Source: a virus (Duplodnaviria > Caudoviricetes). Taken from it: DNA of 64,000 nucleotides. The first letter of the stretch is position 1. Every line of letters begins with the position of its first letter. Under the pieces are notes generated by a model. That model saw nothing but the letters and a program-made list of their open reading frames with translations. It searched no databases and was not told the DNA's origin. The position numbers and the translations under genes were made by a program. The stretch is from the IMG/VR virus record IMGVR_UViG_3300020356_000001, positions 17,362 through 81,361 of that record; one strand, given 5' to 3'. This document shows positions 19,080-64,000 of the stretch, in pieces.

Positions 19080-19388
19080 TTATTCGGCTGCCTTTGCTGC
19101 TGCTGTAGGAGGATCATCAGGCCAAACAACTTCGGACACCTTGCTAAAACTAGCAGGTAAGTCACGTAGTTCTTGTCTGTATGTCGCCCATTCCTCAGCG
19201 GTATGATCGCCTAATGTTGCGTCTGCTATTTGAGTCCAGTCACAATCACGCAACAATGCGTTACGATGCACTCTGGTAAAAGTGAAATCCAGATCCATTG
19301 CTGTGGCTCTATCTTCCATTTCTTTTATTTCTTCTGCCGTGAGTTCGATGTACTCACCGTTCACGACCTTATATCTTGGTTCTGCCAT
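19080..19388 (-). CDS. Tail-fibre assembly chaperone-like protein (copy 1)
   Basis: RNALLRDCDWTQ...WATYRQELRDLP...WPDDP motif. Confidence 0.8.
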   Translation of the reverse strand: MAEPRYKVVNGEYIELTAEEIKEMEDRATAMDLDFTFTRVHRNALLRDCDWTQIADATLGDHTAEEWATYRQELRDLPASFSKVSEVVWPDDPPTAAAKAAE

Positions 19389-19427
19389 ATTTTCTCCTAT
19401 CCTGCTCCATTTATTCCATATAATGTA
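19080..19427. repeat. Direct repeat, copy 1 (copy 2 at 63653-64000; offset 44,573 bp)
   Basis: Manual alignment: 2 mismatches over 19246-19427, about 15 over about 19102-19245. Confidence 0.95.
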
Positions 19428-19924
19428 AAAGTGCTGTATTGCACAAAATCTCCACTGGCGCCATAAACTATGTATTTAAAAGCGTTAACAGCGGCAGTAT
19501 TGTTCCAAAGAGTTCCCGCCATATCAACAACGATTTGACCACCTGTAGTCGAATTATTAGGTGAAGTGGCTCTTGACAACACAGATTTTTTATTAGTGCT
19601 GTTTGCATAGTTAGGTATCCACATTTCCACACAACCAAAAGTGTCCGCTAAAACAGAAGCGGCGGGACAATAACCGCCCCAAGCATACGCTCCAAAACCT
19701 GTAGAACCTGTCCCACTGTTAGCATATAAAAACTGATAATCATAATTAACATCTGTTGTGTCTCCATTCAAAGCAAAATGACACCAATCTTCATAAGCGC
19801 TAGTATCTGCTCTAACTGAGGCTACAAAATACAAATGATCGTAAGACGAAGGGATCGAAGTTTTCTCATAGTAATTAGCCGCTCCGCTAAACTCTGTGTG
19901 ATCTATAACATTCCAAACAGCCAT
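19397..19924 (-). CDS. Tail-associated paralog 3 (175 aa)
   Basis: Shares YDHL...R.D...LNGD...Y...WNNTAA...FTLYGI pattern with its neighbours. Confidence 0.7.
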   Translation of the reverse strand: MAVWNVIDHTEFSGAANYYEKTSIPSSYDHLYFVASVRADTSAYEDWCHFALNGDTTDVNYDYQFLYANSGTGSTGFGAYAWGGYCPAASVLADTFGCVEMWIPNYANSTNKKSVLSRATSPNNSTTGGQIVVDMAGTLWNNTAAVNAFKYIVYGASGDFVQYSTFTLYGINGAG

Positions 19925-20442
19925 TATGAACTCTTTATCCCATATAGTGTGAACTCTGAACCACGCCTCATGTTTCCGTTAGCAGGCGTAAATTTTATTT
20001 GTGTAATAGCCGCCGTGTTATCCCAAAGACCGCTACCCCACCAGATCCTTCTATTAGTATTACTAATCGACTGACCGCCAAATAATAAGACGCTTGTATT
20101 TTTGTTCGTGTTCGTATAATCCAAAACATCCATTATCATCGTTGCATATTCACTGACATCAGTATTGACACCCTGAGTGCCATCCCAAATTTTAACATAT
20201 GCCTGAGAAGTCAAAGCATCTGCATACTGGGTGGCACCGCTTCCCCTCCAAATAAATGATGAGTAAGCCGTTCCAGCCGATCCGTTAAATTCAATGTAAA
20301 AAGCCTGACCAGTAGACGCCCCTGTTGCCGCATCCGATCCACGTACTTGCAAATGCTCGTATGTTGCAGGAATAGACGAGAACGTTACTGACGCAGCGTC
20401 GGCTTCTAAATACTGTGTTGCGATTGCTTCCATAATAGCCAT
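19924..20442 (-). CDS. Tail-associated paralog 2 (172 aa)
   Basis: YEHLQVR...FNGS...WDNTAAITQI...FTLYGI. Confidence 0.7.
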   Translation of the reverse strand: MAIMEAIATQYLEADAASVTFSSIPATYEHLQVRGSDAATGASTGQAFYIEFNGSAGTAYSSFIWRGSGATQYADALTSQAYVKIWDGTQGVNTDVSEYATMIMDVLDYTNTNKNTSVLLFGGQSISNTNRRIWWGSGLWDNTAAITQIKFTPANGNMRRGSEFTLYGIKSS

Positions 20443-21029
20443 TATGCTGTCACCATCCTTGGGAGAATCCCAAACAAATCAAAACGTGTACCTGCCTCTC
20501 CAGCAGCAGCACTTACACCTGTAAGATCAATTTCCGTAATTGGTGCTTCATATTTCCACACATTTGCAAAAGTAGCGATGTAATTAGTGACATCATTAGT
20601 CTCACCAGACCATGCCATAACGGACTTGAATTTACCGCTGTTAATGTCAAACAAATCTATAACCACAGTCGAAAAAACGTTGGCAGTAGCATTGTCACCT
20701 GCAACCCATCCTGCATAAGCATAAGTCGTTGTGGCTGTACCAGAGGCAACAGTAGTACCACCGCCGTATAAATACTGCATGGAGTAGTTGTTGCCGTAAT
20801 CATTGTTCAAATTTAATAAAAGAGAAGTTGATACTGCGGCTTTGGAAGTTCGCACATAGCCAATAATTTTAAGATCCATGTACTGTGACCAGTCGTTAGC
20901 ACCAGTCGTAGAAGTGAAAACCACATCTGCGGCAGATGGTGTTGCTGTACCAAGAGCAACCCACGCTTCACCATCAGTGAGAACGCCGTCAACTATGTAA
21001 TCAGGTGTTGCTGTGTTTACTGTCATCAC
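20442..21029 (-). CDS. Tail-associated paralog 1 (195 aa)
   Basis: YMDLKII...LNND...APITEIDL...FDLFGI. Confidence 0.7.
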   Translation of the reverse strand: MMTVNTATPDYIVDGVLTDGEAWVALGTATPSAADVVFTSTTGANDWSQYMDLKIIGYVRTSKAAVSTSLLLNLNNDYGNNYSMQYLYGGGTTVASGTATTTYAYAGWVAGDNATANVFSTVVIDLFDINSGKFKSVMAWSGETNDVTNYIATFANVWKYEAPITEIDLTGVSAAAGEAGTRFDLFGILPRMVTA

Positions 21030-21877
21030 GCCACCGCATATCTGATTAGAACAATACCCGTTGCGCCCGCTGCTGAAACGGTTGATGAATAACCGCCGCC
21101 CCCGCCACCACCAGTGTTGGGGACACCGCCTCTGGCATAACCCGCACCAGCGGCACCGCCGCCACCGTCACCGCCGAGAGAATCGCCACTACTTCGACCG
21201 CCACCGCCACCGCCCGCATAATATGGAGTCGTAGCAGTGATTCCATAACCCGTGGCACCGTCGCCGCCGTAACCCGCAGCATCAGTACTGCCCGCTTCGG
21301 CTTTGCCGCCACCACCGCCGTAAACATAACCAGCAGGAATGTCAACAGCGCCGCCTGCGTTACCCTGACCTGCTGTACCAGCCCCAGCCGCTCCTACACC
21401 AGAAGCAGTAGTGTTCCAACCAGCGCCGCCGCCAGAACCACCTGCTGAGCCGTCATAACCGCTTGTGTAACTGTTTCCTCCGTGACCTCCACCCGTCGCT
21501 GTAACACTCAACGCTACAGAGTTAGCCCCGTTGGTGGCTGTCCCTGTCGCACCGTTTTCTCCACCGTCGCCGCCTGTACCTACGGTGATTGTGTACGGAC
21601 TAGAAGCCGCATCAACGGTAACACTTGTACCTGTCAACATACCACCAGCGCCGCCGCCACCTCTGCCACCGCCACCAGCGCCTCCTGCGACTATCAGATA
21701 GTCAACGTCAGCGGAACCAGCAGAAACAGTTAATGTGCCAGTACCCCTGAAAGTATGGACACGATATGTTGTACCAGAATCCTCATACTGTGTGATAATC
21801 CCACCAAAAGCAGTCATAGGAATAGCACCAGCACCACTAGCGGAAACCGAACCAGCTAAAGCATGTATGAGAGACAT
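21026..21877 (-). CDS. Glycine-rich tail/receptor-binding protein A
   Basis: YRVHTF...DYLIVAGGAGGG...GGGG tracts...GIVLIRY; paralog of 23146-24066. Confidence 0.75.
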   Translation of the reverse strand: MSLIHALAGSVSASGAGAIPMTAFGGIITQYEDSGTTYRVHTFRGTGTLTVSAGSADVDYLIVAGGAGGGGRGGGGAGGMLTGTSVTVDAASSPYTITVGTGGDGGENGATGTATNGANSVALSVTATGGGHGGNSYTSGYDGSAGGSGGGAGWNTTASGVGAAGAGTAGQGNAGGAVDIPAGYVYGGGGGKAEAGSTDAAGYGGDGATGYGITATTPYYAGGGGGGRSSGDSLGGDGGGGAAGAGYARGGVPNTGGGGGGGYSSTVSAAGATGIVLIRYAVA

Positions 21878-21878
21878 G

Positions 21879-22721
21879 TTAAGCCTGCAAAGCGCCGATA
21901 AGCTGCCAAGTATCTGTAGCTGTCTTAATTATCGTCACCGAAGCGTGTTGCCCATCAATCGCCTTCTCACTGTCTTTACTGTTAATCGTCACTCCTGACC
22001 CTTGAGCCAAAGTTACTTTACCAGCACCTATACCAATAATCGTGATAGCTGTACCAACATCGAAAGCCACACTTGAATTAGGTGGAACAGTGTAAGTCTG
22101 AGCGGAACCGTTACTAGCTGTAACAAGTTTACTTGCGTCAGCGGCGACAAAGGTATATGTAGTTCCTGTTTGAGCGTTTATAGCAAGAGGAGCAACGACA
22201 CTACCAGCAGTCACAGCACCAGTAACAGTTAAAGAAGTAAGAGTACCAACAGAAGTAATCGCCGATTGAGCCGCTCCAGTAACAGTCGCGGCTGTACCCG
22301 AAGCGTTACCAGTAACATTACCAGTAAGAGGACCAGAAAAAGCTGTCGCTGTTAAAGTCCCAGTCCCAGCATTATAAGTTAAACCCCCATCCGATTTAGG
22401 AGCAAGATCACCAGTAGCTGATTCAAACAAAGCCACCGAACACGAAGTATCAGTAGTGTCCGCTACCGTAATAGCAGTAGGTGTAGCAGGAGCATTCCAA
22501 GCTGTCGTTCCGCTACCTGTATGAGTCAAAATAGTGTTAGCTGAAGCTGAAGCGGCGTTTGCTGAACCTATACCAACTTTGGTTTCAAGTTCAATAATGG
22601 CATCAGAATGGTTCGTGTGAACCAAGTGATGCTCGTAACCGGATGCGTCAAGGTCAGTTGTCGCTCCGGGAGCCGGTTGCTGTGTCGCTGTATCTAGTGA
22701 GGTCGGGTAATTACTTGCCAT
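21879..22721 (-). CDS. Tail fibre protein A (280 aa)
   Basis: MASNYPTSLD..., LETKVG, INAQTGTTYTFVAADA...W.LIG.L; paralog of 24066-25079. Confidence 0.75.
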   Translation of the reverse strand: MASNYPTSLDTATQQPAPGATTDLDASGYEHHLVHTNHSDAIIELETKVGIGSANAASASANTILTHTGSGTTAWNAPATPTAITVADTTDTSCSVALFESATGDLAPKSDGGLTYNAGTGTLTATAFSGPLTGNVTGNASGTAATVTGAAQSAITSVGTLTSLTVTGAVTAGSVVAPLAINAQTGTTYTFVAADASKLVTASNGSAQTYTVPPNSSVAFDVGTAITIIGIGAGKVTLAQGSGVTINSKDSEKAIDGQHASVTIIKTATDTWQLIGALQA

Positions 22722-22762
22722 AGTTATCTCCTAGCATAAAGTAGATTCAATTTGAAATCCAC

Positions 22763-23143
22763 TCATATCTGATCCCAAGTTTGTGTATCTTCGTTCCATT
22801 CATAAAACGTGTCTATAAACCCTTTTTCGTTTGGTTCACCAATAGGTCGAGCGACAGGTGGTTGCCACCGAAAATTTTCATCTAAAGCCCACGATGGGAA
22901 AGGTTGTGGTGCATGAAAAGCATCATTACTTGGATCGTAAATGTGATTTATTCCTGCATAATTAAAACGCATGTTTTTGTTATAAGATGTTTGCACCCAT
23001 GTTCCAGAATCAGGTAATAAGTCGTTAAGAAAATCAATTCCTAACTGTTCGTTTTCTACACCGTCAACAGTAGTTATATCGTTACTAATAACAAGCACTT
23101 GAAGGACTTTGTTGTTTTCGTCTAGTTCCGCGAAATGAGCCAT
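22763..23143 (-). CDS. Conserved tail-region protein (MAHFAELD... family)
   Basis: MAHFAELDENNKV...WVQTSYN...YAG...PQPFPSW motif. Confidence 0.75.
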   Translation of the reverse strand: MAHFAELDENNKVLQVLVISNDITTVDGVENEQLGIDFLNDLLPDSGTWVQTSYNKNMRFNYAGINHIYDPSNDAFHAPQPFPSWALDENFRWQPPVARPIGEPNEKGFIDTFYEWNEDTQTWDQI

Positions 23144-23145
23144 AC

Positions 23146-24066
23146 TTACCCCAATGCCGCTGTTAAGAAACGAACTACAACAATTCCAGAACCACCAAGC
23201 GAGTCAGCGCTGTAAGCTGAACCGTCATAACCGCCGCCACCGCCGCCTGTATTAGCAGTTCCAGATCCGGGGTTAGTAGAATTTTGTTCACCGGCACCCC
23301 CACCGCCAGTACCGCCGGTACCATAACCACTCTGACCGCCACCACCGCCACCCCCACCGGCGTAAGCTATATTTGAGCCTGTCCGATAATCATTATTTGA
23401 ACCATTACCACCTGCTCCTGCCGCCGCTGGCCACCACATCCAACCATTCCAAGAGCCATAACCTCCATAACCAGTCTGACCGGCACCGCCACCACCACCA
23501 GAAGTAAACGGACCACTTCCACCAGCGGCGGCACCAGCACCGCCGCCATTTCCTTGAGATGGACTTGTTGAAGGAGTATTACCCGAAGCACCATATTTGT
23601 TGTAACCGCCACCGCCACCTGAACCACCTGCTACGGCAAGATAACCTGTAGCAGAGTGACCGCCACGACCACCACCATTACTTGTGTATGATCCGAACGA
23701 AGTGTCGCCACCCTGATTTGGCGACCCAGTAGTATTAGAAGCAAAACTGCCTGCTCCACCAGCCCCGATTGTAACTGTGTAAGTTTGAACCGTTGGAATT
23801 AAATTAACCGTACGCAAACCGCCAGCACCACCACCACCTGTAGGTGAACCGTATTCAATACTTGCCGCTCCACCGCCTACAATTAAAACATCTATAGCGG
23901 CTCCAGCACTATTGTCTGTTACTTGAAAAGAACCTGAGCCTTGAAAAGTAACCGAAGTGTAAACGCCGTGAGTTTGTGGTGTTTCATTACCTGAAGCGGT
24001 ATAAGCGAGAACACCACCTGCACCAGATTCTTGAATCGCTCCCACTATAAGTGGATTAAAAGTCAT
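23146..24066 (-). CDS. Glycine-rich tail/receptor-binding protein B
   Basis: DVLIVGGG...AGGLR...YAGGGGG...GSGIVVVRF. Confidence 0.75.
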   Translation of the reverse strand: MTFNPLIVGAIQESGAGGVLAYTASGNETPQTHGVYTSVTFQGSGSFQVTDNSAGAAIDVLIVGGGAASIEYGSPTGGGGAGGLRTVNLIPTVQTYTVTIGAGGAGSFASNTTGSPNQGGDTSFGSYTSNGGGRGGHSATGYLAVAGGSGGGGGYNKYGASGNTPSTSPSQGNGGGAGAAAGGSGPFTSGGGGGAGQTGYGGYGSWNGWMWWPAAAGAGGNGSNNDYRTGSNIAYAGGGGGGGGQSGYGTGGTGGGGAGEQNSTNPGSGTANTGGGGGGYDGSAYSADSLGGSGIVVVRFLTAALG

Positions 24067-25079
24067 TACTTCAGCTTACCGATAAGTGTCCAAGCATCAG
24101 TGGCAGTTTTAATCAAACATGCCGAAGCGTATTGACCGTCGATCTCTTTGTTGGAATCAACAGACGTTATCGTCACCCCGGAGCCTTGAGCCAACGTGCA
24201 GTTAGCTGAACCAATGTTCTGAACAATGATCTGAGTACCCACATCAAAAGCAACCGACGAGTTCGGAGGAACCGTAAAAGTTTGCGCTGAACCGTTAGAA
24301 GAAGTAACAAGCTTACCAGCGTCTGCGGCCACGAAAGTGTAGGTGGTTCCAGTCTGGGCGTTTATCGCTATGGGAGCTACTACGCTTCCACCAGTTATAG
24401 CGCCTGTCACAGCAAGATCATCAGCGACGGTAACATTTCCGTCAGCGATATCTAACGCTGTCGCAGAATTAGTACCTGTTATCGTGAGTTTCTCCTCAGA
24501 AGCATCCCACACCATCGAATCGCCAGCAGTGTCAGAGTAGAAAGTAACATCCCCACCCGTACCGTCACTACCTACAGTCAAACCTGTTAAAGCCCCCAAA
24601 GAAGTAATAGCTGTTTGCGCCGCGCCTGTGACAGTAGCCGCAGTACCAGAAGCATTCCCGGTCACGTTACCTGTCAAAGCACCAGCAAAAGCAGTAGCAG
24701 TCAAAGTACCACTACTCGCATCGTACGTGGCACCACCATCAGTTTTCGGAGCGAGATCGCCAGTAGCGGACTCGAACAAAGCGACACTACAAGACGAATC
24801 CGTAGTATCCGCAACAGTGATAACAGTAGGCGTTGCCGCCGCAGGAATAGCCTCCCACGCTGTACTACCATCAGCCTGCCTAGTCATAACATGACCGTCA
24901 GAAGCGTCTGCCGCCGCAGAAGCCCCAATACCCAGCTTTGTTTCTAACTGAATTAAAGCACCAGAGTGATTCGTGTGAACCACATCATGTTCCAAACCTG
25001 AAGTGTTTAAATCATCAGAAGCAGAAGGCGACGGTTGTTGCGTCGCCGTGTCAAGCGAGGTCGGATAATTTGTAGCCAT
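24066..25079 (-). CDS. Tail fibre protein B (337 aa)
   Basis: Paralog of 21879-22721 with a roughly 55-aa insertion. Confidence 0.75.
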   Translation of the reverse strand: MATNYPTSLDTATQQPSPSASDDLNTSGLEHDVVHTNHSGALIQLETKLGIGASAAADASDGHVMTRQADGSTAWEAIPAAATPTVITVADTTDSSCSVALFESATGDLAPKTDGGATYDASSGTLTATAFAGALTGNVTGNASGTAATVTGAAQTAITSLGALTGLTVGSDGTGGDVTFYSDTAGDSMVWDASEEKLTITGTNSATALDIADGNVTVADDLAVTGAITGGSVVAPIAINAQTGTTYTFVAADAGKLVTSSNGSAQTFTVPPNSSVAFDVGTQIIVQNIGSANCTLAQGSGVTITSVDSNKEIDGQYASACLIKTATDAWTLIGKLK

Positions 25080-25465
25080 TAAGCAAGGGTAACAGTTAGC
25101 TGACCTGCCGCGAGGGAAATCGTGTCACCAGAAGCCACAGCCTTAGAAGAAGACACAGCACCATGATACAAAAGATTCCCCGAAGAAGAAGCATCCCAAA
25201 TACCTATATGCGTAACAGTACACGCAGGCATATCAGTAAACTCCTCCGCAGTTGAATTAGTCACCGCACCACCTGTACCAGCGGCGGCATTAAAATCAAT
25301 AGTCTGCCTAGCGTAAGACCCACCAGAACACTCCGCACCCGAACCAGCATCAGTCGGATCGGCAGTATGCAAAGCAAGATACGCTTGCGAAGGATGCGTA
25401 AAAGCGGCAGTCCCTAAAGTATGGTCAAGAAGCTTACGCTCCAAATAATCTGACATCGCGGCCAT
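25079..25465 (-). CDS. Tail-associated protein (MAAMSDYLE... family), first gene of the late operon
   Basis: SDYLERKLLDH...YLALHTADP...GGSYARQ...THIGIWDA motif; GGAG RBS. Confidence 0.75.
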   Translation of the reverse strand: MAAMSDYLERKLLDHTLGTAAFTHPSQAYLALHTADPTDAGSGAECSGGSYARQTIDFNAAAGTGGAVTNSTAEEFTDMPACTVTHIGIWDASSSGNLLYHGAVSSSKAVASGDTISLAAGQLTVTLA

Positions 25466-25806
25466 AAAAAACTCCTATAAAGGTTTGAACATGTTCCAAC
25501 CCATGATATAAATATATAGCCCCTCCGTCCATACTACAGAGGAATAAATAAAAACGAAGTATGCGGACCCTTATCAGGTTCAGTTCGCCCGTCAGAAGGG
25601 CATCCGCCCCCTGCAATCAAGTCAAGCAGAGGCAGAGTAAAACGTGATCGCTCGAACTCGAAGTGGAGCCGTACTTAAAACGGTCGGAAGGCACACCCAG
25701 GGGAAACAAGGCTCAAAAACAACCAACGGTGGTGTCCACGAAAAGAACAACACCTCAGACATTTGTCTATATCTAGGGGGTCTGGTACATGGGGGGGATG
25801 TCGGGG

Positions 25807-26276
25807 TAAGAAAGGTAGCGTAGCGTACCCTTTCTTAGGGCGACGCTCTTAGAAATCGCGTCGATATCTGAAGAGGCTATGCCTCGATGATATCGGCTCA
25901 CGGGTTTTAAAGAGAGGCGGATGCTAAAATGCGAAGCCTTTAGGCTTCAGCATCCGCCGAACGCATGAGCGCCGAGTATAATAGGAGCCGAAGGCTCACT
26001 CGGCGCGAATAAATCGCACACAGAGCGACGACAGGTCGCTAGAGGTGCATAAGTGCAGGTCAGAGTGTCTGTGGGGTTGTGTGTGGACAGCGCCTGTCGG
26101 GGCTGTGTGTGCGTAGAAAAAAGGGCGCCGGTAGGCGCACCGTTTTGGGTGGGGTCGAGGGGTCGCCGTAGGCGAGGGCTCGCAGGAAATGAGGCGAGCT
26201 TCGCTCGGCATTAATCAAAGGGGTGGGGCTTCGGGCGATTACGGCGAGACCGTTGGCTTTGCCAGCTGGTCGCCGT
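25807..26276. other. Non-coding cluster of inverted repeats/hairpins (putative genome end or control region)
   Basis: e.g. GGCGGATGCT/AGCATCCGCC (25916-25958), GCGCCGAGT/ACTCGGCGC, TCGCC-GTA-GGCGA, CGAGC-TTC-GCTCG. Confidence 0.7.
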
Positions 26277-26417
26277 TATCGGGGGAAGGATTTTTGTGGG
26301 GTGTCGGCGAATAAAAGAAGCTCTATTTCTGCGGTTTTCGCTTGCGAAAAAGTCCAAGTGAATGTTCTCTTTCATTCACCTGGACTAGTAGAAATGGCGC
26401 TTCTTTTGTGGAAACAC

Positions 26418-26426
26418 TGCTATAAT
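26418..26426 (+). promoter_or_regulatory. Extended -10 promoter (TGnTATAAT) for ORF 26477
   Basis: TGCTATAAT about 50 bp upstream of the ATG. Confidence 0.6.
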
Positions 26427-26476
26427 TTAAGGGTAGTCACAAAGGCTACGAAATATAAATAAATGAAAAGGCAATA

Positions 26477-27340: not shown

Positions 27341-27349
27341 AAAATTTAA

Positions 27350-27382
27350 GGCGGGGGGCTTCGGCTCCCCGTCTTTTTTTTT
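27350..27382 (+). terminator. Rho-independent terminator
   Basis: GGCGGGGGGC-TTCG-GCTCCCCGTC stem (C(UUCG)G loop) followed by a T run. Confidence 0.85.
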
Positions 27383-27748
27383 GCGCCATAATTCGCAAGC
27401 AAATTACGCCGCTACGAAAAAAAACCGCCAAACCTCTCCGTTCCTGCCATCTCTTTAAAAACGGAGCCGTCGGTTGCTTTGCCGGTGACGGCGAACTGCT
27501 GAACAACTTTAAATAACTGACCAGCTATTAACATTCAAGACCAGTAAAGCTTTTGTTGTAATGCCGGAAGCGAAGGAGGCATTACATAAGAAAGCTTTAA
27601 ATTAGAAAAGGATCGCCGAAGGCGAGTGATATAAAAAAAATTTTTCCTCGCTACGCTCGGAGATAAGACCGAACCTTCGGTTCGACTTATTTCTTTCAGC
27701 CCTTTGCTCGTACCTCGCAAACCCCTGCCCCACCCTTAAATACTTTGG

Positions 27749-27984: not shown

Positions 27985-27996
27985 GGTAGATAATCG

Positions 27997-28132: not shown

Positions 28133-28162
28133 TATAATAAATGATAATAATAGGGAGAAGAA

Positions 28163-29959: not shown

Positions 29960-29961
29960 TT

Positions 29962-30407: not shown

Positions 30408-30415
30408 ATTCGCAC

Positions 30416-56700: not shown

Positions 56701-58736
56701 AATTCTCTAGCAACCCAACGTCCTTGTTGAGCTAAATACTGCATTCCGATACGAGACATGTCTTTAGCTAAAGCAGTAGTTTGGAAATTTCTAGCACCAA
56801 AATCTACAATTACATCTATATGTTTGCGCGCTAAACCTAATGATCTACCGACTACACCAGTTGGGAGCAACACGGCATTAGCCGCGCCTCTGCCACCAAA
56901 GCCTGTTGATAAAGCCGCAGTTCCAGCCTCACTGTACATAAATTCCCATATGCCATCAGGAGTTGAAAGCCCTGTATTAGCTTTTGTAAACCCAGCCGTG
57001 TACATGTTTTCCATAGCTTCGCGCCCAAGAGTTTGCGTACCTACAGTTTCAACAAATGTTTCCCATACGTCACCTTTAGGAGCGACATATTGTAAAGTTC
57101 TTTTTTGTTTATGCCATGCTTTCATTCTTTCATAAACAGGTTTTAATCCTTTATATTTTTGAAGCAGATAAGTTTCAGGATGAATCCAATCAGGGTTAGC
57201 TTTTGTTAATCTGCTTTCAGCTATAAGCTCAGCATCTTTTATTGTTATTTTTTTACCAGCTTCAGCGGCTTCTCTGAAAATTTCACTAGTTAAAGTATCC
57301 AACTCGTCTAAACTTTTAAACGATTCAGCAACTTCATCTTGGAACTTGATTAACTGTCTACCTCTCCAAAGAAGAATAGGTTTAATACCACCAAAGAAAT
57401 TTTCTGATCTGGCTTTACTAAACCAGTCAGCCATCTCATCTGCACCTGAAGTTCCACGTAACGAATACTTATTGTTAGCTCGCATCGCGTCAGTTAAATT
57501 ATTCCAAAAATCAATATTATTCCACGTAGATTCTCTTGCTTGCCAAGGGCCTTTCTTAAGATCCTTACCTTGAATACGAGCTTTGTTTTTTAAGAAAGTT
57601 CGCTTAACTAAACCGGGACGAACCATTGCCATTTGAGCAGGGCGTGTCAACTTAATAGCTTTCATCCAGATTCCACCAGCCCAAGTAGTTGGGTCTAACA
57701 AAATCTCAGTAGTCATTGAACCAGCGAAACCTACAATGGTTCCATATGTAGTTCCACGTTCAGCATCAGGTAAAAAAGCATTATTCTTATTCCAGAACTT
57801 GCGTGAATACTCCATTGTGTCCACGCGACCTTCATCAAAAACATTTATAGCTTCACGCGCACGATCAGAATTAATCCAGTCCATTTCTTTTTCAAATTCT
57901 TGACGAATAGATTCATCGTCTTCTAAACCTGTTCGACGGACAATAAGATCCCACACGCCGTTCTGTCCGAAACCTGCGTACATTCTCAGCATCTCTACTT
58001 GAGAATCATCAAATCCCATTTTCATTACTTGAGCGTAAGAGTTCTCATCAAAAGAAGTTTCCGCATGTTCAGTCATACGCCAACCATCCATCACAGAACC
58101 AATGTCACCAAGGAAAGATCCTTCTTTAGCATCTGTGTAAGCAAGCGATCTTCCTGCACGTTGAGCGAAACGCCCCGACATCATAAGAAGTTCCCAAGCT
58201 TTATCAAGCTGAACTATTTTCGCGCCAATGCCTAAACCTTTAACAGAAAGTTTTGTAACCCCTTTAACAAAATCACCAACATAAGGAATACCACCAAGAC
58301 CCCAAGCAAAACCGGGGCCTTTCTCTCCGGGTGGCCTGTATCCTATATCACGTAATCTTTTCTGAGCGGCTGGTGGAAGATTAGCAAACTCTTGTTCTTG
58401 AATCGGATCAGCCATACTTTCCAACATGGATTTACCATCAGATACAGATTCAGCATTACGTGTAGTTAAATACTCATCTAACATGTCGTCATCGCTTGTA
58501 TCAGCCATGACAATATCTGTTAATTGGTCAAGATCCCCACCGAATATTCCGAACCCACCATTGTTTGATATGAGTTCAAACCTGTTATTAAGACGTACGT
58601 CCTCATAAGAAGGAGCATGGTCATAATTTTCTGGAACATCAGAATCCGGCAACTCATAATTATTTGAGCCACTAAAAAATGGCGATACGCGAGTTCTACT
58701 ATATGGAACTAATTGTTTCTCAGCCACGAGACTCAA
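50760..58736 (-). CDS. Giant internal virion/ejection-type protein (2658 aa)
   Basis: Two genes after the portal; C-terminal SLIPFWFAEDLYLRRW region parallels the VIPFYTWTRKN region of the arm A giant. Confidence 0.7.
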   Translation of the reverse strand: MSLVAEKQLVPYSRTRVSPFFSGSNNYELPDSDVPENYDHAPSYEDVRLNNRFELISNNGGFGIFGGDLDQLTDIVMADTSDDDMLDEYLTTRNAESVSDGKSMLESMADPIQEQEFANLPPAAQKRLRDIGYRPPGEKGPGFAWGLGGIPYVGDFVKGVTKLSVKGLGIGAKIVQLDKAWELLMMSGRFAQRAGRSLAYTDAKEGSFLGDIGSVMDGWRMTEHAETSFDENSYAQVMKMGFDDSQVEMLRMYAGFGQNGVWDLIVRRTGLEDDESIRQEFEKEMDWINSDRAREAINVFDEGRVDTMEYSRKFWNKNNAFLPDAERGTTYGTIVGFAGSMTTEILLDPTTWAGGIWMKAIKLTRPAQMAMVRPGLVKRTFLKNKARIQGKDLKKGPWQARESTWNNIDFWNNLTDAMRANNKYSLRGTSGADEMADWFSKARSENFFGGIKPILLWRGRQLIKFQDEVAESFKSLDELDTLTSEIFREAAEAGKKITIKDAELIAESRLTKANPDWIHPETYLLQKYKGLKPVYERMKAWHKQKRTLQYVAPKGDVWETFVETVGTQTLGREAMENMYTAGFTKANTGLSTPDGIWEFMYSEAGTAALSTGFGGRGAANAVLLPTGVVGRSLGLARKHIDVIVDFGARNFQTTALAKDMSRIGMQYLAQQGRWVARELSDRMNLPVGDANRIVIKDLKKPLDARSIGLILQSTADGPVDSRLLQSMGISDPAQVEDLIKTAETLKKEFVDYASKQSMFDELFNFYADQGINIADQDVLKNIKTGQRPETFSGWFRVYNNYLEHARHKPGSRNYELIGGLKAGALGVGDHVKAVAVQLMYHPAKLAKKLTTHVPLNNIIDVLDDKTALKEFDALVEMGILADMPREVIEHFKHTFINGTEAQRWNVQVEFLMDFMARSGAILHGGPKVETFMRRFISKADHVYDINRQDNIDFFGGFEVKRAVVPGPAQSAQLSKMNIIPDFRELAGIARYMGFIRHMGWAMSLPTIDKMFSKVWRPSVLLRFGYVPRNGGDELLQFVLREGMGATIRGRLARVVNGRTVMFDQYGTKIPVYKGRAVHDVFDPVTGKRIRKGEYEDLLVGSDLKQIANLNLKSMGEVHHNKFMGLLTAPLRFASEISGVGDIAVTRKTLKRLTDDPTKRRKFQFSDWETQRKMFEDNRKIVRSEMSSTIRGKIFYRNWVLGQWAAARSSEVMHKFANSAGLPSKAATAQWFGKKLTDETEFEAHMDAMDILLSHPSVRDSFMRDLFNTYDPYLNPQHSLDQAMRSGGFGKAIQARHRIPLNYAGSDFTWVDKDGDRTLDYWNGLNSQLVEMSQSPAHVLMARELSQYVSVQAERTNRIILDELGIVFDADDPIGASREVARIIERLSVQERRALKQLYNGTGNLTLSPDADAPTHFHTQFDNWANNVGDDNNLMEIFVGLLTDPKTPSKTDVNFWTSIINQDWMIARLGDETGSTAMSRLMAMSLIAPDSTRMSSNLDEVLALAHDANTTYMRSPQGQQLAHSMVAYELGGHGIAGQTGMAPPQRGAVRVWTPKLSEPAIRVLADYFIMAGQDPDSVIHIQNAIYRKLMRRLPQTLPDREKVADKVLSLIHPSATPYQNRTIGSFEDMIGFSQAAEQTHIPLLTASSDPHVAHSIGEAIDEALREVAEIRSGTGVGTDWIGPKLEVRDISSDAFFAKPGLTEARLTNQYGTTPRVNQNGTVVSEVAGIEPNGSRIFYTVGDDGSIISPEDVGGFENQSVFAVAQDVLAQPGGVVQIQDSVPQVILKRTYKRKDPTTGKTEYYTSQANYTNKDFNPDDWEIADEFYTVLNDTDAMVEDMARVQLEGLKKITLSQTSETAMHEILFELLDDEVIPSRLMANGKRSDLPQSIYAEIGVGAHEFKGQQKFDYLWNKVLTAWFDGVIHPAMEAMVREPMFTHYFAEAWRLYEKTEGTYMINAAKESPILNKLGLFSTVDEADIIPQLEDFIKHVWSNQALDPNDALSRVAYAMSQGDHAQVAELIARNSDLDFMKALIEKSNNKAGAIRELTKYSNRRFNAHQNRVNHAMEKAGSVTASFIDDHRIRSQFQEMMGSLIPFWFAEDLYLRRWVRGLTQNPLMLRNLQLTIRGGEKAGLVREDQNGRRYLIIPATLPSSQVLMDALHEIPVIGGYLAGVASIPTVDQMFRLDRLMPGYDLETVGRPQVGPFISYPLTRLAVSDPTIFEDISPFMQERFAYVADNRDAEDAGNSKLHDFLDAFFPYPISQGLIMTQQHWNRGEQFASAQIQAVKLRQATGRMPTQDQISRKEDPDLFNEEFMEQLDHEAQQIMGMNFTTWFLGTGKGTNKDLRFGDAWDWNSELHWYIQQGWTHDEALLMFYDNHKYDEDFDKDSWETQTKMSLFQTGTSKKTGVGYTQQSKAVDKWLTENGEWAMNFPHSTSFLVPYEVGLEYNEDMAWGWKQRQIAKGLRELKSKEEYVKDFYFNGAASEYYDRKQRNAYAVAVLQSQNQMKAAKELTERFNIWDKGFMDRHPVFFVETQKGRSSIRREATFQEFRKIVRNPEMIPDSPYKNEILDVMMDIVRLNYELEVINKRPNVEDYRSFVKAFFLRRIEEKVAGKPHLQPLLNNLVIPYLNQEWVGQFRAGLIRIAPKIIPDREWTGVTL

Positions 58737-59151
58737 ACGATTCTACAAGAGCAGTCAAGTTAGGATTGCCTGTAGTCATAGCGAGTCTCTTAATCAATCT
58801 GTTACTTCTCTCAGAAGAGTAAGTACCCAACTGTGCGCCCGGCATAGGTTGAGGTTCAATACCAGCAGTCAACCCAAGATCAGGGCGATCATCTGCCGCT
58901 GTTAAAGGAGTGACATTAGGTATCCACTGCTGTGCTAAATCCAAAGGTGCATTAACAGCACCTTGAGGTTGAGCCGCCGCTACCTGACCATCAGGTGTAC
59001 GCGCAGTATCATATTTAGTTTGCATGTTAGGAAGAGCTATACCACCCTCGTTAGGATTTTGAGCCTGAAGATTCTCAGACTTCTCACCATATGAAGCACC
59101 AGCTTCCAAACCCGGAGCTTTAGCTCCTTGAGTTTTCTTAGCTCTAGGCAT
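58720..59151 (-). CDS. Small post-portal protein
   Basis: 143-aa coupled ORF; YGEK.E motif. Confidence 0.6.
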   Translation of the reverse strand: MPRAKKTQGAKAPGLEAGASYGEKSENLQAQNPNEGGIALPNMQTKYDTARTPDGQVAAAQPQGAVNAPLDLAQQWIPNVTPLTAADDRPDLGLTAGIEPQPMPGAQLGTYSSERSNRLIKRLAMTTGNPNLTALVESFESRG

Positions 59152-60949
59152 TAGCGCCTGCTAACAATGCGGCTCTCATCTCAGCTAAACCCGGAGGAGC
59201 TTGTTCAGGAGGAGCGCCAGCCGCCATCTCTGGACCACCGGCTAATCCTGGTGCCGCTTCAGGAGCCATCATTTGACCTTCGGCAGGTTCAGGAATTTCC
59301 TGAGCTTGTTCTTGGCGTAGCTCTTCGTCAGCCCTACGGATAGACTCAAAAATGTCATGTCCATCCTTTCTGAACTTTTCGATTTTCGCTACATAAACAA
59401 TAGGCATAGTTCCTTGAGCGGCTTGTTGTTGTATACCTGCCATTACCGCTTCTTCTAATTGTTCCTCATCAACCCTTCTGCCTTCAGCTTCAGGATCGTC
59501 AACGAAAGGATGCTTCACACGAAAAGTATTAAGACTAATACCTTTCATCTGTAGCAACTGACCTAACTGAATTGTTGTACCCTGAACATCTGCTCCGGGT
59601 ATTGAATGAGAAACAACATTATCGAAAGACTCGAAATGTTCTTCAGGTGTGAACTCTACGTGACCGAAGTCACCTGAGTAGCCTGTGAATGTAACAAACT
59701 TTTGTTGATCGAAGTAACCTCTGTAACAAGCAAAGATGCATTCATTCAAATAGGGAAGATGTGCTTCCATTGTCTCTTGAAGCTCCTGCACACGTGGATC
59801 AAGAGAAGCGCCCATGAGAGCGTCAATGCCCCTACCAGTCCGTAAAGCACCGTAACTTTCTCCACCGATCTGGGGAACCGTGCCAGTAGAGATCCTCGCA
59901 TTACGTTCAAGTCTATCAATGGCGATATTGGTCGAGGGATCGGGTGAGGAGCGAAGCTCTCCAATTTGTTCTGCGTCAAGCAGTACGTTGACTTCACCTT
60001 CGCGCCCATCTTTCCATTCACCTCCTACAATCATAGGCACTTGACCTGAACGGCCAATGATGTACCTATCAGGGAAAATTGCTTTCTCCTGTGCGATTAT
60101 TTCCAAAGCCATAAGCTTTGCCATCAAGTCTGTCATACCAACAACATTTGAAACTGATGAAGCTATCTTATCTAAAGTGATACGTCCAGGAGTTATTACA
60201 CAAGGCATGCCTGCTCTGTTAATAGCCCTTGACAATTCTAATTGTGTGCTGTGATAAGAATACGTTGAGTTGTGATAACCATAACGTGGCCCCATTATTC
60301 CAATGACGATATGTTCACCGTCAATCCATTCGCATACATCCCATAGTTCTTGCCTAGCGTTTTCATCTGAATCTATAGGCCCACCGTTTTCAGTTCTAGA
60401 AGCAGGATAATTTGCGCGTAGCCAGTCACCAGACTTGCCGTACACAAAACCACAGTTACGAGGAACATCATAATTCTCAGCGGCTTGTGGTTCAGGATAA
60501 ACACCTAAAGGATCACGTACCTCTATCTTTGGCATACCTAACTTGAAATCAGGGTATACGCATAAAGCTGTCGTAGCATAACCAGCGAGGTGACGATACG
60601 CTCTACGCATCTTAACTTTGAAACGATTCTGATACCACGTAGCGGCAAGCGCACGTTTACGCACATCAGCATATTGTCTCGATCTTCTACCTCTTTCTTT
60701 GCTAGGGTCTATAGCAGGACATCCGATAAATGGCATAACAGATGCGGCTCTTTGAGCTACAGCATCAATGTTCTCAGAAATTAAAGAAGGAGTTAATGGA
60801 GGAAGAATAGGTTCTTCATCCATAGAAGGAAGCGGTATAACATAATCACCGTTATAACGTTCTTTGATATCAAGCATACGTTCTAATAAAGGAGACTGTG
60901 CTTCTTGCCGCTGTCTTATTATTCCAACTATTTCTTCAAATGTGTACAT
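59144..60949 (-). CDS. Portal protein
   Basis: 601 aa directly after the terminase; typical size and acidic/Pro-rich C-terminal tail. Confidence 0.8.
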   Translation of the reverse strand: MYTFEEIVGIIRQRQEAQSPLLERMLDIKERYNGDYVIPLPSMDEEPILPPLTPSLISENIDAVAQRAASVMPFIGCPAIDPSKERGRRSRQYADVRKRALAATWYQNRFKVKMRRAYRHLAGYATTALCVYPDFKLGMPKIEVRDPLGVYPEPQAAENYDVPRNCGFVYGKSGDWLRANYPASRTENGGPIDSDENARQELWDVCEWIDGEHIVIGIMGPRYGYHNSTYSYHSTQLELSRAINRAGMPCVITPGRITLDKIASSVSNVVGMTDLMAKLMALEIIAQEKAIFPDRYIIGRSGQVPMIVGGEWKDGREGEVNVLLDAEQIGELRSSPDPSTNIAIDRLERNARISTGTVPQIGGESYGALRTGRGIDALMGASLDPRVQELQETMEAHLPYLNECIFACYRGYFDQQKFVTFTGYSGDFGHVEFTPEEHFESFDNVVSHSIPGADVQGTTIQLGQLLQMKGISLNTFRVKHPFVDDPEAEGRRVDEEQLEEAVMAGIQQQAAQGTMPIVYVAKIEKFRKDGHDIFESIRRADEELRQEQAQEIPEPAEGQMMAPEAAPGLAGGPEMAAGAPPEQAPPGLAEMRAALLAGANA

Positions 60950-62646
60950 TATGTTACGACTTTCGCAGGTGTCTTCAACTTACTCCAAGGTAGCGCTTTA
61001 AACTTAAATTGTGAAGAGTCAACGTCAAATGCTTGCTTCCTTTGTCTCCATAAAATCCATATGAACCAGAGTGCCATTACCTGATCCTGTCTTAGTTTAG
61101 TACCCCTTTTTAATGGCCGCCATGATTTTAGCTGTCTAATTAGCTGGTCAGCCTGATGTCTTGTTGACGGATCATCAGCGTAAGGTATCTCAATTTCCTC
61201 ACGCATAAACGATAAAGCCATAGAAGGAACACCTATAGTTTCATCATATTTGTTCACACCTGTCAGATGTTCCCTTACTCTAAACCCATATTTATCTGTC
61301 ATTTCAATAAGACGTTCATCACGAGATAACCCTTTTTGAAACACCATTGCTTCAATAACAACATCAGAAACAGTACTACCATTCTTCATACACCTGAGTA
61401 TCGCGTCTTCAACTACTTGCAATATTTGTTCATTACGTGTCAACCCAATATCTTCACGAACAAAAAGAATCTTCAACTTTCCTTCATGGGGTGTCGCCGC
61501 AACAACACAATTATTGGAACCCAACGCAGGGTCTAACCCAATGTAAACACTGCACTCTTTAGGTGGGTCATGTAATACCGACCTTAAAGGATTTAAACAT
61601 TTCTTTATAGCATCATCTGTAAATGTCGCAGAAAGAGAACTGGTAGGTTCCTGCATGTAGTTTCTTGACCATGCTTCTTCACCAACCTTACGACGAATAC
61701 GATCAAGCTTTTCCATAGAAAACATTTCAGGCCATAACGGTTCAGGTTCACCCTCATCGTTTGTAACGATTGCAGGAAACTTAATAACAGTAAGGATGTC
61801 TTCATCTATTTCATTCATTACTCTTTCATAGAAATCATCCTCACCTACCCTTGTGCCATTAATACTTGTGCGCCCATTCTCACCCGGACGAGTCAACCAG
61901 TCCTGTCGGAACACCTCGAACATTTGTTCTGTAAGGTTTAACGAAACACGAGACTGAATATCATCCACATGCAAATGGTCGGTTCGAGTACCAGCAATTT
62001 TAGATCGCCAACCCAAAGCCACCATCGAATAGTCACGCTCATCATGCCTTTGCTTTTTGAAAACATCAAAATAATCAGCCCCCCACATTTGAGCAGTCTT
62101 ACGACCACTCTGGTTCTGTGGAACAAACGGTCCGAACTTGCTTACATATTTAGGGAAAGGACCATGAGGTTCCATACGTGTACGGATACGCCCAAGAATT
62201 TTACGGCTCATATCCTGCCCTTCAGAACCAACAGTGATTCTGAACTCAGGGTTCGTAGCCAGCTTGTAACAAAAGTAATCCTCAGCAAGAGTAGTTTTAC
62301 CATGCTCAGGTGGCCACAAGATAAGAGTTAAGTTACCCGGAGGTGTATTCTCATACGCATTGATAGCTTGAAGATGAAACCAAGGTGACATATGTCCGAA
62401 GTATTCATCTCTGAAACTTTTAAAAGAACCGTCCCATTCTTTCTTAGGTTCATTAATTGAGAGTTCATTTCTTAAAGCATCAGCTTTAGCCGCGAACTCT
62501 GGGAACCTTTGTCTCCACTTCTCATAAGCAGAACGTGTAACACCAACAATGTTACAAGCACCCTGGACTGTCCCTTGATCTTCTAAAGCTTGAAGAAACA
62601 GTTTCCTATTCTTCTCGCCTCGATCTTTACTAGCGTTTTGTGTCAT
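60949..62646 (-). CDS. terL: Terminase large subunit with N-terminal HTH extension
   Basis: PPEHGKTT Walker A, HVDDIQ Walker B, YMQEP, IGLDPA, QDQVMALW. Confidence 0.9.
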   Translation of the reverse strand: MTQNASKDRGEKNRKLFLQALEDQGTVQGACNIVGVTRSAYEKWRQRFPEFAAKADALRNELSINEPKKEWDGSFKSFRDEYFGHMSPWFHLQAINAYENTPPGNLTLILWPPEHGKTTLAEDYFCYKLATNPEFRITVGSEGQDMSRKILGRIRTRMEPHGPFPKYVSKFGPFVPQNQSGRKTAQMWGADYFDVFKKQRHDERDYSMVALGWRSKIAGTRTDHLHVDDIQSRVSLNLTEQMFEVFRQDWLTRPGENGRTSINGTRVGEDDFYERVMNEIDEDILTVIKFPAIVTNDEGEPEPLWPEMFSMEKLDRIRRKVGEEAWSRNYMQEPTSSLSATFTDDAIKKCLNPLRSVLHDPPKECSVYIGLDPALGSNNCVVAATPHEGKLKILFVREDIGLTRNEQILQVVEDAILRCMKNGSTVSDVVIEAMVFQKGLSRDERLIEMTDKYGFRVREHLTGVNKYDETIGVPSMALSFMREEIEIPYADDPSTRHQADQLIRQLKSWRPLKRGTKLRQDQVMALWFIWILWRQRKQAFDVDSSQFKFKALPWSKLKTPAKVVT

Positions 62647-62649
62647 AAG

Positions 62650-62952
62650 TTAAGCGTGGTCAAATACCGATTTGACTACCTCTAATTCAACCGTTTCTGC
62701 GGCAATGATACCTTCACTACCAACAAACCTTATTGTGTGAACACCTATCTGATCTAATGTGAAATCTTTATAATACACACCTGTACCAGATCGTGTCATA
62801 CCACTTGACCCTGTGTAAGAAGTGTTAGTTCCATCAGGTTTATTCCAAGTAATAGTCACATCATCTTCATTATCTGTTGGATCGTCAGCAGTCCCACCAG
62901 TTGTAAACGTGGCAGTTACGCGCACTTGGTCATTTTTATCGTATGTTGCCAT
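62650..62952 (-). CDS. Small Ig-like/beta-rich structural protein
   Basis: 100 aa; TGVYYKDF motif. Confidence 0.6.
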   Translation of the reverse strand: MATYDKNDQVRVTATFTTGGTADDPTDNEDDVTITWNKPDGTNTSYTGSSGMTRSGTGVYYKDFTLDQIGVHTIRFVGSEGIIAAETVELEVVKSVFDHA

Positions 62953-63644
62953 TAAACACCTACTGTAATCGAAACGTCATCTACTAAAGATGATACAAGA
63001 GTAACATCGCTTGGCAAAGAAACTGCCAAAGTTACATGAGGATTTGGTCTGTTAGTCTCAATAGTGCAACTAATTGTTGCCGATCCTGTAAGCGAAGCGG
63101 CTATCAAAGCCTCCTCGATAATAGCTGTTAACGTAGAACCAGTAGAAGAAAGCGACTCGCCAGTAAGATAATGTTTTTGAAATATCGTAGCTGACAGTGA
63201 CGAAGATGCTGATATGCCTGCACTCAACAAAGCTTCTTCGATGATTGCAGTTACTGTAGAACCAGTAGCTGAAAGCGAAGAACCTATAAACTGTGTTGAT
63301 TGAACAGTCGTTGAAGTGGAACCCGACCCAGTGACACTACCCCCAATAAAGTTCGTCATCTGCAATGTGACACTGGAAGAACCAGAAGCAGATATTGAAG
63401 CTGCTATTGTGTGCGTTTCGTAAGAAGCTGCACCGTCGTAACGCCAGTCGGCGCTTCGGTAACTTACATTAGCTTTCCGATACCCGATATTGAATGTTTG
63501 ATCGGCATACTCGGTTGTTACATGGTTGTAATTTAATCCGGGTTCGCTGTATTTGTAAGTTGATCCTGTATACGCAGAAGATCCACCAGAATACTCTAAT
63601 GTGGTTGAGCTATAGTCTTGTCCGGGTGCTGGATATACAGGCAT
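62952..63644 (-). CDS. Ser/Thr-rich repeat structural protein
   Basis: Repeats such as SLSATGSTVTAIIEEALL / SLSSTGSTLTAIIEEALI. Confidence 0.65.
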   Translation of the reverse strand: MPVYPAPGQDYSSTTLEYSGGSSAYTGSTYKYSEPGLNYNHVTTEYADQTFNIGYRKANVSYRSADWRYDGAASYETHTIAASISASGSSSVTLQMTNFIGGSVTGSGSTSTTVQSTQFIGSSLSATGSTVTAIIEEALLSAGISASSSLSATIFQKHYLTGESLSSTGSTLTAIIEEALIAASLTGSATISCTIETNRPNPHVTLAVSLPSDVTLVSSLVDDVSITVGV

Positions 63645-63652
63645 TAATCACG

Positions 63653-63961
63653 TTACTCTTCGGCTTTAGCTTTAGCTGTAGGAGGGTCATCAGGCCAAAC
63701 AACTTCGGACACCTTGCTATATGTTGCAGGTAGGTCACGTAGTTCTTGACGGTATGTCGCCCATTCTTCAGCAGTATGATCGCCTAATACTGCGTCTGCA
63801 ATTTGAGTCCAATCACAGTCACGCAACAATGCGTTACGATGCACTCTGGTAAAAGTGAAATCCAAATCCATTGCTGTGGCTCTATCTTCCATTTCTTTTA
63901 TTTCTTCTGCCGTGAGTTCGATATACTCACCGTTCACGACCTTATATCTTGGTTCTGCCAT
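63653..63961 (-). CDS. Tail-fibre assembly chaperone-like protein (copy 2)
   Basis: 97 of 102 residues identical to 19080-19388. Confidence 0.85.
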   Translation of the reverse strand: MAEPRYKVVNGEYIELTAEEIKEMEDRATAMDLDFTFTRVHRNALLRDCDWTQIADAVLGDHTAEEWATYRQELRDLPATYSKVSEVVWPDDPPTAKAKAEE

Positions 63962-64000
63962 ATTTTCTCCTATCCTGCTCCATTTATTCCATATAATGTA
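63653..64000. repeat. Direct repeat, copy 2 (runs to the window edge)
   Basis: Last 77 bp (63924-64000) exactly match 19351-19427. Confidence 0.95.

Follow-up and report, generated by a model that had tools for sequence, protein, structure and literature searches.

The analysed window is a stretch of 64,000 nucleotides that forms the final part (positions 17362-81361) of an 81,361-bp IMG/VR contig, and it contains a direct repeat at 19079-19427 and 63652-64000 with about 93% identity and a spacing of 44,573 bp. A repeat search paired 19079-19378 with 63652-63951, and BLASTN lengthened the match to 345 bp at 93% identity (19083-19427 versus 63659-64000); the two methods agree with the preliminary description, which had reported a tail-chaperone gene occurring twice in direct orientation. 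The second repeat copy is the extreme terminus of the contig, whose last 77 nt (63924-64000) are an exact copy of 19351-19427; counted from that end, base 78 is the first to differ. At the other terminus, the opening 72 nt of the contig match window positions 20916-20987 exactly, and over 155 nt the identity is 92%; contig positions 1-155 run in register with 20916-21070, and the g001 and g055 stop codons line up.

The repeated gene is a 102-aa ORF on the minus strand, present as one allele at 19080-19388 (repeat copy 1, hereafter the A allele) and another at 63653-63961 (repeat copy 2, the B allele), and the two proteins are 95% identical. Both exceed the gathering cut-off of PF16778 (Phage_tail_APC), with 64.1 and 65.9 versus 26.6 bits, and are also matched by PHROG tail-fibre-assembly families (phrog_4912 for the A allele). 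No mismatch separates the copies in the 39 nt upstream of the gene, the BLASTN mismatch list has two in its 5' third (~98% identity), and identity falls to ~93% in the middle third and ~83% in the 3' third before the alignment breaks down immediately beyond the stop codon, so that both the gradient and the unrelatedness past the stop codon described earlier are real.

Next to the first chaperone copy lie three small minus-strand ORFs, g052 (19397-19924), g053 (19924-20442) and g054 (20442-21029), which are written once in the record. None of them has a family in PHROGs or Pfam, and in the protein atlas g052 and g054 fall solely into virus-only hypothetical clusters. They are 98-100% identical in contig L138 and show 33-73% aa identity in 20 other cassette-bearing contigs. 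The order of fibre gene, g054, g053, g052 and PF16778 chaperone applies to both phages described below, here called A and B, and recurs in A-type, B-type and a third background in 21 contigs. The gene bodies of g052-g054 are hypervariable, and short boxes at every gene boundary are almost invariant, with 90-100% conservation even where the gene bodies of relatives cannot be aligned.

Phage B corresponds to a genome of 44,573 bp (window 19428-64000 treated as a circle), with the B-specific sequence at 20988-63923, and its genes match only the B-type genomes G001, G003 and G004 (44,224-47,537 bp). It carries fibre genes, an early/replication module, lysis and head genes, a giant ORF, portal and terminase. 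The glycine-rich fibre genes g055-g060 (21026-25465, minus strand) include PF21722 (Gly_rich_2) matches in 21026-21877 and 23146-24066 and the paralogues g056 and g059, which are 60% identical. The endolysin (37488-38231; phrog_2649), the major head protein (42037-43212; phrog_1328, E 1.9e-46), a giant 2658-aa ORF (50760-58736), a portal with a weak match to phrog_104 (59144-60949) and the terminase large subunit (60949-62646; phrog_38, E 1.5e-49) are all encoded on the minus strand, and the portal/terminase region is 80-83% identical in G001, G003 and G004. B closes on itself, since a 27,922-nt contig from run X12 carries all 16 B-specific chaperone letters together with the B upstream flank (63645-63674) and continues through 19428-20226; the IMG/VR contig itself ends at 64000. 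Contigs L043 and L151 likewise hold portal, TerL, g113, g114, chaperone, cassette, g055, g056 and g060 on one piece, as does G001, in agreement with the earlier view that the region from 19.1 to 64.0 kb is one closed genome.

Phage A starts outside the window, in contig positions 1-17361, and extends over window positions 1-19350, where its genes match only the A-type genomes G006 (38,987 bp) and G007 (40,929 bp). Its part of the window comprises a replication module, lysis genes, a giant 2657-aa ORF, an 857-aa ORF and the chaperone allele. We identified a PD-(D/E)XK exonuclease (873-1679; PF12705 with 48.5 bits, phrog_1218, phrog_69), a DnaB-like helicase (2253-3374) and a primase (3367-4392), all on the plus strand and the latter two matched as a pair by phrog_19 and phrog_21866, and on the minus strand a holin (5901-6098; phrog_443), an endolysin/amidase (6074-6829; phrog_1493, phrog_822) and the giant ORF (6850-14823), a presumed virion protein that shares 41% identity with the G006 giant across 2053 aa. 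The preliminary description counted one terminase, portal and capsid gene, which is correct within the window, but the preceding 17,361 bases hold a second, non-homologous terminase/portal/scaffold/capsid set of families unlike those of B, so that the full record has two TerL, two portals and two MCPs in different PHROG families. In L003 the A packaging and head set consists of TerL ATPase and nuclease ORFs, a portal (phrog_156), a scaffold and an MCP (phrog_9953).

The segment from 1 to 19.1 kb had been taken for an arm of a different phage; the phage is indeed different, but its genome is present in the record in full or nearly so, as a second genome of about 38.3 kb (contig 1-38276 treated as a circle), which also closes on the cassette. 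Its closure is based on gene order in relatives and on the exact end match of the contig. Contigs L147 and L156 have the order g048, chaperone, g052, g053, g054, g001, g002-g005, MCP, portal and TerL, the same closure order is found in L139, L140, L142 (38,409 bp), L144 and G007, and in total at least 13 independent A-type contigs place the cassette between g048 and g001-g004. The genes of A span almost the whole of G006 (positions 364-38581 of 38,987). Low-depth contigs of run X1 that bypass 19445-19893 and 19949-20426 (depths 10.3 and 7.5; anchors 30-36 nt) hint that the g052 and g053 alleles of A are absent from the record and that A may be incompletely represented; its own alleles of these two genes would then differ from those written there. 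A 47-mer search of IMG/VR for the exact chaperone allele of A gave no independent contig.

The two phages each have their own replication and lysis genes, and all-against-all BLASTP found just eight similar pairs among the 115 ORFs. The coiled-coil proteins noticed earlier are homologous, with 59% identity between g050 (18647-19075) and the protein encoded at 44681-45157, and the presence of two endolysins was confirmed. The remaining pairs proposed in the preliminary description stand in part. For the two holins, the A gene has a family match and the 73-aa candidate of B has none. For the two Cas4-like exonucleases, A has the PF12705 protein, and B has a phrog_284 exonuclease (36229-37290) and a Cas-associated match of weak score (32186-33121). 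The two giant ORFs exist, but no homology between them was detected: BLASTP of the A against the B giant gave no match, HMMs of the giants from three A-type and four B-type phages picked up nothing, and hhalign returned a probability of 1.4%. Pfam contains no family for either giant or for eight further large virion ORFs, nor does PHROGs for that of B, which shares 25-27% identity with its counterparts in B-type relatives. The giants of relatives measure between 2746 and 4465 aa, and the agreement in length here is therefore a coincidence rather than a trace of duplication. A and B also have in common a ferredoxin-peptide pair, the g050/g102 gene and a non-coding element of roughly 114 nt.

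G001, G003, G004, G006 and G007 are 100% complete according to CheckV, near-complete relatives measure 37-41 kb for the A type and 44-47.5 kb for the B type, and A (38.3 kb) and B (44.6 kb) are of corresponding size. The hallmark gene of the other type was found in none of nine long relatives, and none of at least 120 related IMG/VR contigs (80 B-type, 40 A-type) carries both types, although the two sets have many samples in common.

Sequencing depth was taken as one k-mer mean per exact-match Logan contig of short-read runs, disregarding Logan joints with anchors shorter than 30 nt, in the likely source run (X1) and in runs of two other studies (X12 and X16). In X1 the depth is 7.9-8.4 for A, 111-116 for the cassette, g052-g054 following the depth of B, and 92-108 for B, which places A and B about 13-fold apart (about 8 versus about 106). 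One X1 Logan contig begins exactly at 19351, where the depth rises from ~8 to 116, and an X1 Logan contig terminates exactly at 20987. In X12 the depth is 25-30 for B and about 0-1 for A; in X16 an A-like strain stands at about 6 and B at about 0-3. In these other studies each part thus occurs independently of the other. The depths add up (116 for the cassette versus 108 for B plus 8 for A), but this was given no weight because the depth of B itself ranges from 92 to 108. Gaps in the X1 cover of 9351-15983 likewise carry no evidential weight.

The preliminary description left three origins of the join open. We conclude with high confidence that the 81,361-bp record arose as an assembly chimera of two unrelated tailed phages co-occurring in the same seawater sample, because the last 77 nt of the contig copy an internal site exactly, the two parts differ about 13-fold in depth and occur separately, and packaging and head genes are present separately in each half. 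Stretches of the cassette identical over at least 72-77 nt in A and B would make the two circles touch as a figure-eight in the de Bruijn graph. The assembler would have started on the branch of A just past the cassette, where the 72 nt at 20916-20987 mark the exit of the A path towards the fibre gene g001, and gone round A to its chaperone allele. At 19351-19427, the 77-nt vertex where the paths of A and B merge, it would then have switched to the path of B, which is far deeper, passed along the cassette and gone round all of B, until the B chaperone allele led back to the same vertex and the walk ended. The assembler k was presumably 77, which suits the end of the contig exactly and its start only roughly.

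That roughness, together with the fact that no same-strain contig was seen passing from the cassette into g001, is what could be said for a mis-join in which A amounts to no more than a fragment, the contig start agrees with 20916-20987 incidentally, and A does not close through the cassette. We regard this as extremely unlikely given the register of the contig start with the cassette and its aligned stop codons, the position of the cassette in the A-type contigs and the near-complete coverage of G006 by the genes of A. One genuine phage genome of at least 81 kb with two alternative ejection, lysis and head sets would fit the CheckV estimate of 100% completeness, the IMG/VR entry as a single linear contig and the similar GC content of the two halves (0.44 and 0.43). 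The probability of such a genome is negligible in view of its two complete, non-homologous terminase/portal/capsid sets, its unequal depth, the finding of each half without the other in other studies, relatives of 37-47.5 kb devoid of the other half's hallmark gene, and the closure of B on itself in an independent contig.

Homologous recombination at the cassette in a co-infected cell could also have fused A and B into a real cointegrate or recombinant, and the long identical stretches, possibly a cassette identical over up to about 1.6 kb, the co-occurrence of the two types in many samples and the 95% identical chaperones make recombination between them plausible. A real molecule of this kind is nonetheless very improbable as the source of the record: the depth gap in X1 leaves at most a small fraction of B in it, the contig comes to its end precisely on the shared vertex, which is how a graph walk behaves, DNA of 81-83 kb would probably be too big for heads that package 37-47.5 kb in every near-complete relative of either type, and no related contig has both types.

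The sharing of the cassette by A and B is ordinary phage mosaicism, and a shared putative host-recognition cassette argues for a common host. The identity gradient along the chaperone gene had been read as a recent swap of the tail cassette. The 5' end of this gene is one of several short conserved junction boxes; taken alone, the gradient does not point to a recent swap of the whole cassette, and it reflects conserved boxes around hypervariable fibre genes. The chaperones of A and B are nevertheless 95% identical to each other versus at most 87% to those of the A-type and B-type relatives examined, which still suggests a local exchange; only the chaperone of L138, which bears the record's own cassette allele, reaches 95-96%. 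We tentatively propose, as a possibility and not as the likelier case, that the boxes at the chaperone/g052, g052/g053, g053/g054 and g054/fibre boundaries could be shared recombination linkers by which at least three unrelated marine lineages keep swapping hypervariable fibre-tip genes, and that A and B could infect the same cells together and still be exchanging genes. If true, this would explain the ferredoxin-peptide pair, the g050/g102 gene and the non-coding element shared by A and B.

Tail-fibre and assembly-chaperone modules such as H/G of P2, S/U of Mu and stf/tfa of lambda are exchanged among unrelated phages. As in those modules, the chaperone lies directly downstream of fibre genes, is common to otherwise unrelated phages and is bounded by sharp breaks of homology at or near gene ends; unlike in them, it is of the PF16778 type and follows three small genes, g052-g054, with hypervariable bodies and almost invariant boundary boxes. 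Repeat regions are known to cause chimeric contigs in phage assembly (Phables, PMC10563150), and the record resembles inter-genome chimeric metagenome contigs in that it ends in a repeat with an exact overlap of k length and its halves differ in coverage and occur independently. It differs from the usual cases in that A and B are not close relatives, their terminase, portal, capsid and giant proteins show no detectable similarity, and the two touch only via a small exchangeable cassette, yet both were traversed nearly whole. IMG/VR contigs that exceed their expected length more than twofold have been described (PMC8116208), and like such CheckV-type concatemers the record has about twice the expected genome length and a direct repeat one genome length (44,573 bp) apart; unlike in concatemers, just 0.35 kb is repeated and the rest is a second genome, for which the k-mer-frequency test would read ~1.0 and raise no flag.

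Chimeras of unlike genomes thus evade the k-mer-frequency test that detects concatemers, and an IMG/VR record of this kind taken as one virus misleads analyses of genome size, gene content, clustering and host prediction. An exact k-length match of the contig end to an internal site, combined with two sets of hallmark genes, offers a route to their detection. The record should be split at window positions 19351 and 20987, which yields two genomes, both close to complete, from marine phage groups that are abundant and uncultured, a useful if unsurprising gain. A tblastn search for cultured relatives among 50,697 phage records gave only distant matches: the TerL of B is at most 28% identical to any of them, and the portal of A is 40% identical to that of one 42-kb spring-water metagenomic phage.

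The 115 ORFs called on the whole 81,361-bp record, which IMG/VR lists as linear and 100% complete and of which the window is bases 17362-81361, belong to two phages strung together, A (~38.3 kb) and B (44,573 bp). The packaging and head genes of A lie in the 17 kb before the window, i.e., a terminase large subunit as two overlapping ORFs, portal (phrog_156), scaffold, major head protein (phrog_9953), and internal virion proteins, while its window part encodes an HNH nuclease, a PD-(D/E)XK exonuclease, a DnaB-like helicase, a primase, a sigma-like protein, a holin, an endolysin, a 2657-aa giant ORF and an 857-aa ORF. B encodes TerL (phrog_38), portal, major head protein (phrog_1328), a 2658-aa giant ORF, an endolysin, an exonuclease, SSB, DpdA, and a NinG/HNH nuclease. 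Only eight similar protein pairs were found among the ORFs by all-against-all BLASTP. With separate packaging, head, replication and lysis genes for A and B, the record thus comprises two full sets of phage genes, which belong to different families.

The terminase large subunit of A consists of an ATPase part (295 aa) and a nuclease part (222 aa) overlapping by 4 nt (L003:8625-10177, in the contig bases preceding the window); the split recurs in the relatives G006, G007, L147, and L156, and is therefore conserved and not a sequencing error. Between the giant ORFs of A (6850-14823) and B (50760-58736) no homology was found, profile methods included, and the Pfam search gave no family for either. 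In relatives, the corresponding proteins are 2746-4465 aa long and only 25-58% identical, which indicates fast evolution. The DpdA-family transglycosylase of B (33033-33824; PF23859, 275 bits; phrog_1279) suggests that B DNA may carry a 7-deazaguanine modification.

A repeat search of the window detected one long repeat only, direct, at 19079-19378 and 63652-63951 with a spacing of 44,573 bp; in a BLASTN self-alignment of the whole record it is 345 bp long at 93% identity and reaches the final base of the window. Each copy contains a 102-aa chaperone ORF on the minus strand (19080-19388 and 63653-63961). By BLASTP the encoded proteins share 95% identity, and each scores above the Pfam cut-off for phage tail assembly chaperones (PF16778) and has matches among PHROG tail-fibre-assembly families. 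Identity in the BLASTN alignment is 98-100% across the 5' third of the gene and the 39 nt upstream, declines 3'-wards to ~93% and then ~83% near the stop codon, and is absent beyond it, so the repeat and its gradient were correctly drawn in the preliminary description.

Since the window runs to record base 81361, the second repeat copy is the physical contig end. The final 77 nt of the contig match window 19351-19427 exactly, the nearest mismatch being at base 78 from the end, and the initial 72 nt match 20916-20987 exactly; the initial 155 nt align from 20916 in register at 92% identity, with the upstream fibre genes aligned at their stop codons. Both ends therefore point into one 1.6-kb stretch, 19351-20987, a convergence characteristic of a figure-eight in the assembly graph, in which circle A would comprise contig 1-38276 and circle B window 19428-64000 (44,573 bp). 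The 77-nt overlap is consistent with a vertex of a de Bruijn graph at k=77; that at the contig start falls 5 nt below this, which may reflect end trimming.

The gene orders implied by the two circles occur on independent contigs. In IMG/VR, 172 stretches are related to the TerL of B, the best 80 of which were taken as loci, and 40 loci are related to the portal of A; these two lists share no contig and many samples. The longest contigs (44,224-47,537 bp for the B type, 36,775-40,929 bp for the A type) are mostly 96-100% complete, and in none of them was the hallmark gene of the other type found. By tblastn of all 115 ORFs against five whole relatives, A genes matched only the A-type G006 and G007 and B genes only the B-type G001, G003, and G004, the exceptions being a ferredoxin-peptide pair, g050/g102, and the fibre cassette, i.e., the chaperone, g052 (19397-19924), g053 (19924-20442), g054 (20442-21029), and adjoining fibre genes. 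The g053-stop/g052-start boundary contains a 24-nt box that 21 IMG/VR contigs share without a mismatch, and at least 13 of these contigs have A-type flanks as classified by tblastn. Contigs L147 and L156 carry in a single piece g048, chaperone, g052, g053, g054, g001, g002-g005, MCP, scaffold, portal, and TerL, and L142 is part of a 38,409-bp contig. Similarly, L043 and L151, close B relatives with g113 and g114 96-97% identical, carry portal, TerL, g113, g114, chaperone, cassette, g055, g056, and g060 in a single piece. The gene orders of G001 and G007 are consistent with these closures. Both joins of the figure-eight are thus natural gene orders of two lineages.

Window 14351-24350 is present in part in twenty public runs, where the word shares form clusters at about 0.95-0.98, 0.5-0.63, and 0.3, and Logan contigs of four runs were placed on window 9351-29350. 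In X1, possibly the source sample of the record, exact-match contigs have depths of 7.9 and 8.4 for A, 116, 113, and 111 for the cassette, and 108, 106, and 92 for B, with contig breaks precisely at 19351 and 20987. In X12, from a separate study, B has a depth of 25-30 and A is nearly missing. A 27,922-nt contig of this run terminates on 19102-20226, differs from the reference at 16 positions in 19147-19350, every letter being that of the B chaperone allele, and has an overhang that is exactly window 63645-63674. Because it carries the B allele and then the cassette well past a 77-mer, this contig closes B into a circle of 44,573 bp, and does so in a sample nearly without A. In X16, plankton from a third study (2025), an A-like strain (95-99% identity) is present at a depth of ~6 and B at 0-3; it tracks the record through g050 and diverges at 19075-19087, at the chaperone stop codon and gene boundary, and therefore has another cassette.

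The abundances of A and B thus vary independently across X1, X12, and X16, which rules out one genome of 81 kb; a real A-B cointegrate could be at most a minor species. We conclude that the A-B join is almost certainly an assembly artefact; the two-genome interpretation proposed earlier is supported by the gene sets, the relatives, the run depths, and the closure contigs. Over-long IMG/VR contigs with one genome repeated have been described, as has the failure to detect chimeras assembled from related viruses (CheckV; PMC8116208), and it has been noted that chimeric phage contigs arise from repeats and that phage variants have unitigs in common (Phables; PMC10563150). The fibre region of B is likewise mis-assembly-prone, as Logan contigs contain several joints between its glycine-rich repeats; its paralogous fibre genes lie at 21879-25079, with g056 and g059 60% identical and Pfam Gly_rich_2 in both g055 and g058.

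The biology beneath the chimera is the exchange of fibre and chaperone modules among unrelated phages, a process well known from P2, Mu, and lambda. The cassette is found in three or more phage backgrounds unrelated to each other, the third being that of L146 and L152. Across 19030-21050, compared with L043 and L138-L157, every cassette gene boundary has a short box conserved at 90-100% (g050 start and chaperone stop; chaperone start and g052 stop; g052/g053; g053/g054; g054 start), while the gene bodies between them are hypervariable (33-73% aa); the cassette proteins of close B relatives share only 35-43% identity with those of the record. By sliding identity, the L138 allele is 98-100% identical to the record, whereas in L139 and L140, from A contexts, only the boxes stay at 90-100% and the gene bodies fall to 30-60%. 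As the boxes persist where gene bodies diverge, the high identity at the chaperone 5' end is a conserved junction box; the gradient from which a recent tail-cassette swap had been proposed is real, but does not by itself prove a recent exchange of the whole cassette. The boxes might serve specifically as recombination linkers through which putative fibre-tip genes are shuffled between lineages, a proposal we regard as tentative. Low-depth X1 contigs (10.3 and 7.5, near the depth of A) connect 19445 with 19893 and 19949 with 20426 through short anchors, hinting that A has different g052 and g053 alleles, which the assembly discarded as bubbles of low coverage; in that case the record would show the cassette of B.

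Small modules are also common to A and B. A ferredoxin (Pfam Fer4_15) and a 60-aa peptide (L003:10181-10602 in A, 44261-44688 in B) share 74-91% aa identity; their order is swapped and their genome position differs, the pair being directly upstream of TerL in A. The g050 (142 aa; A, 18647-19075) and g102 (158 aa; B, 44681-45157) proteins are 59% identical, the former adjoining the chaperone and the latter close to the head genes. Among the whole genomes compared, g050 matches B-type relatives only, and it is found again next to the chaperone in L139, L140, L146, and L152. Finally, a non-coding element of ~114 nt at window 30409-30522 is 91% identical by BLASTN to L003:14487-14600, within early regions of A and B that are otherwise unrelated.
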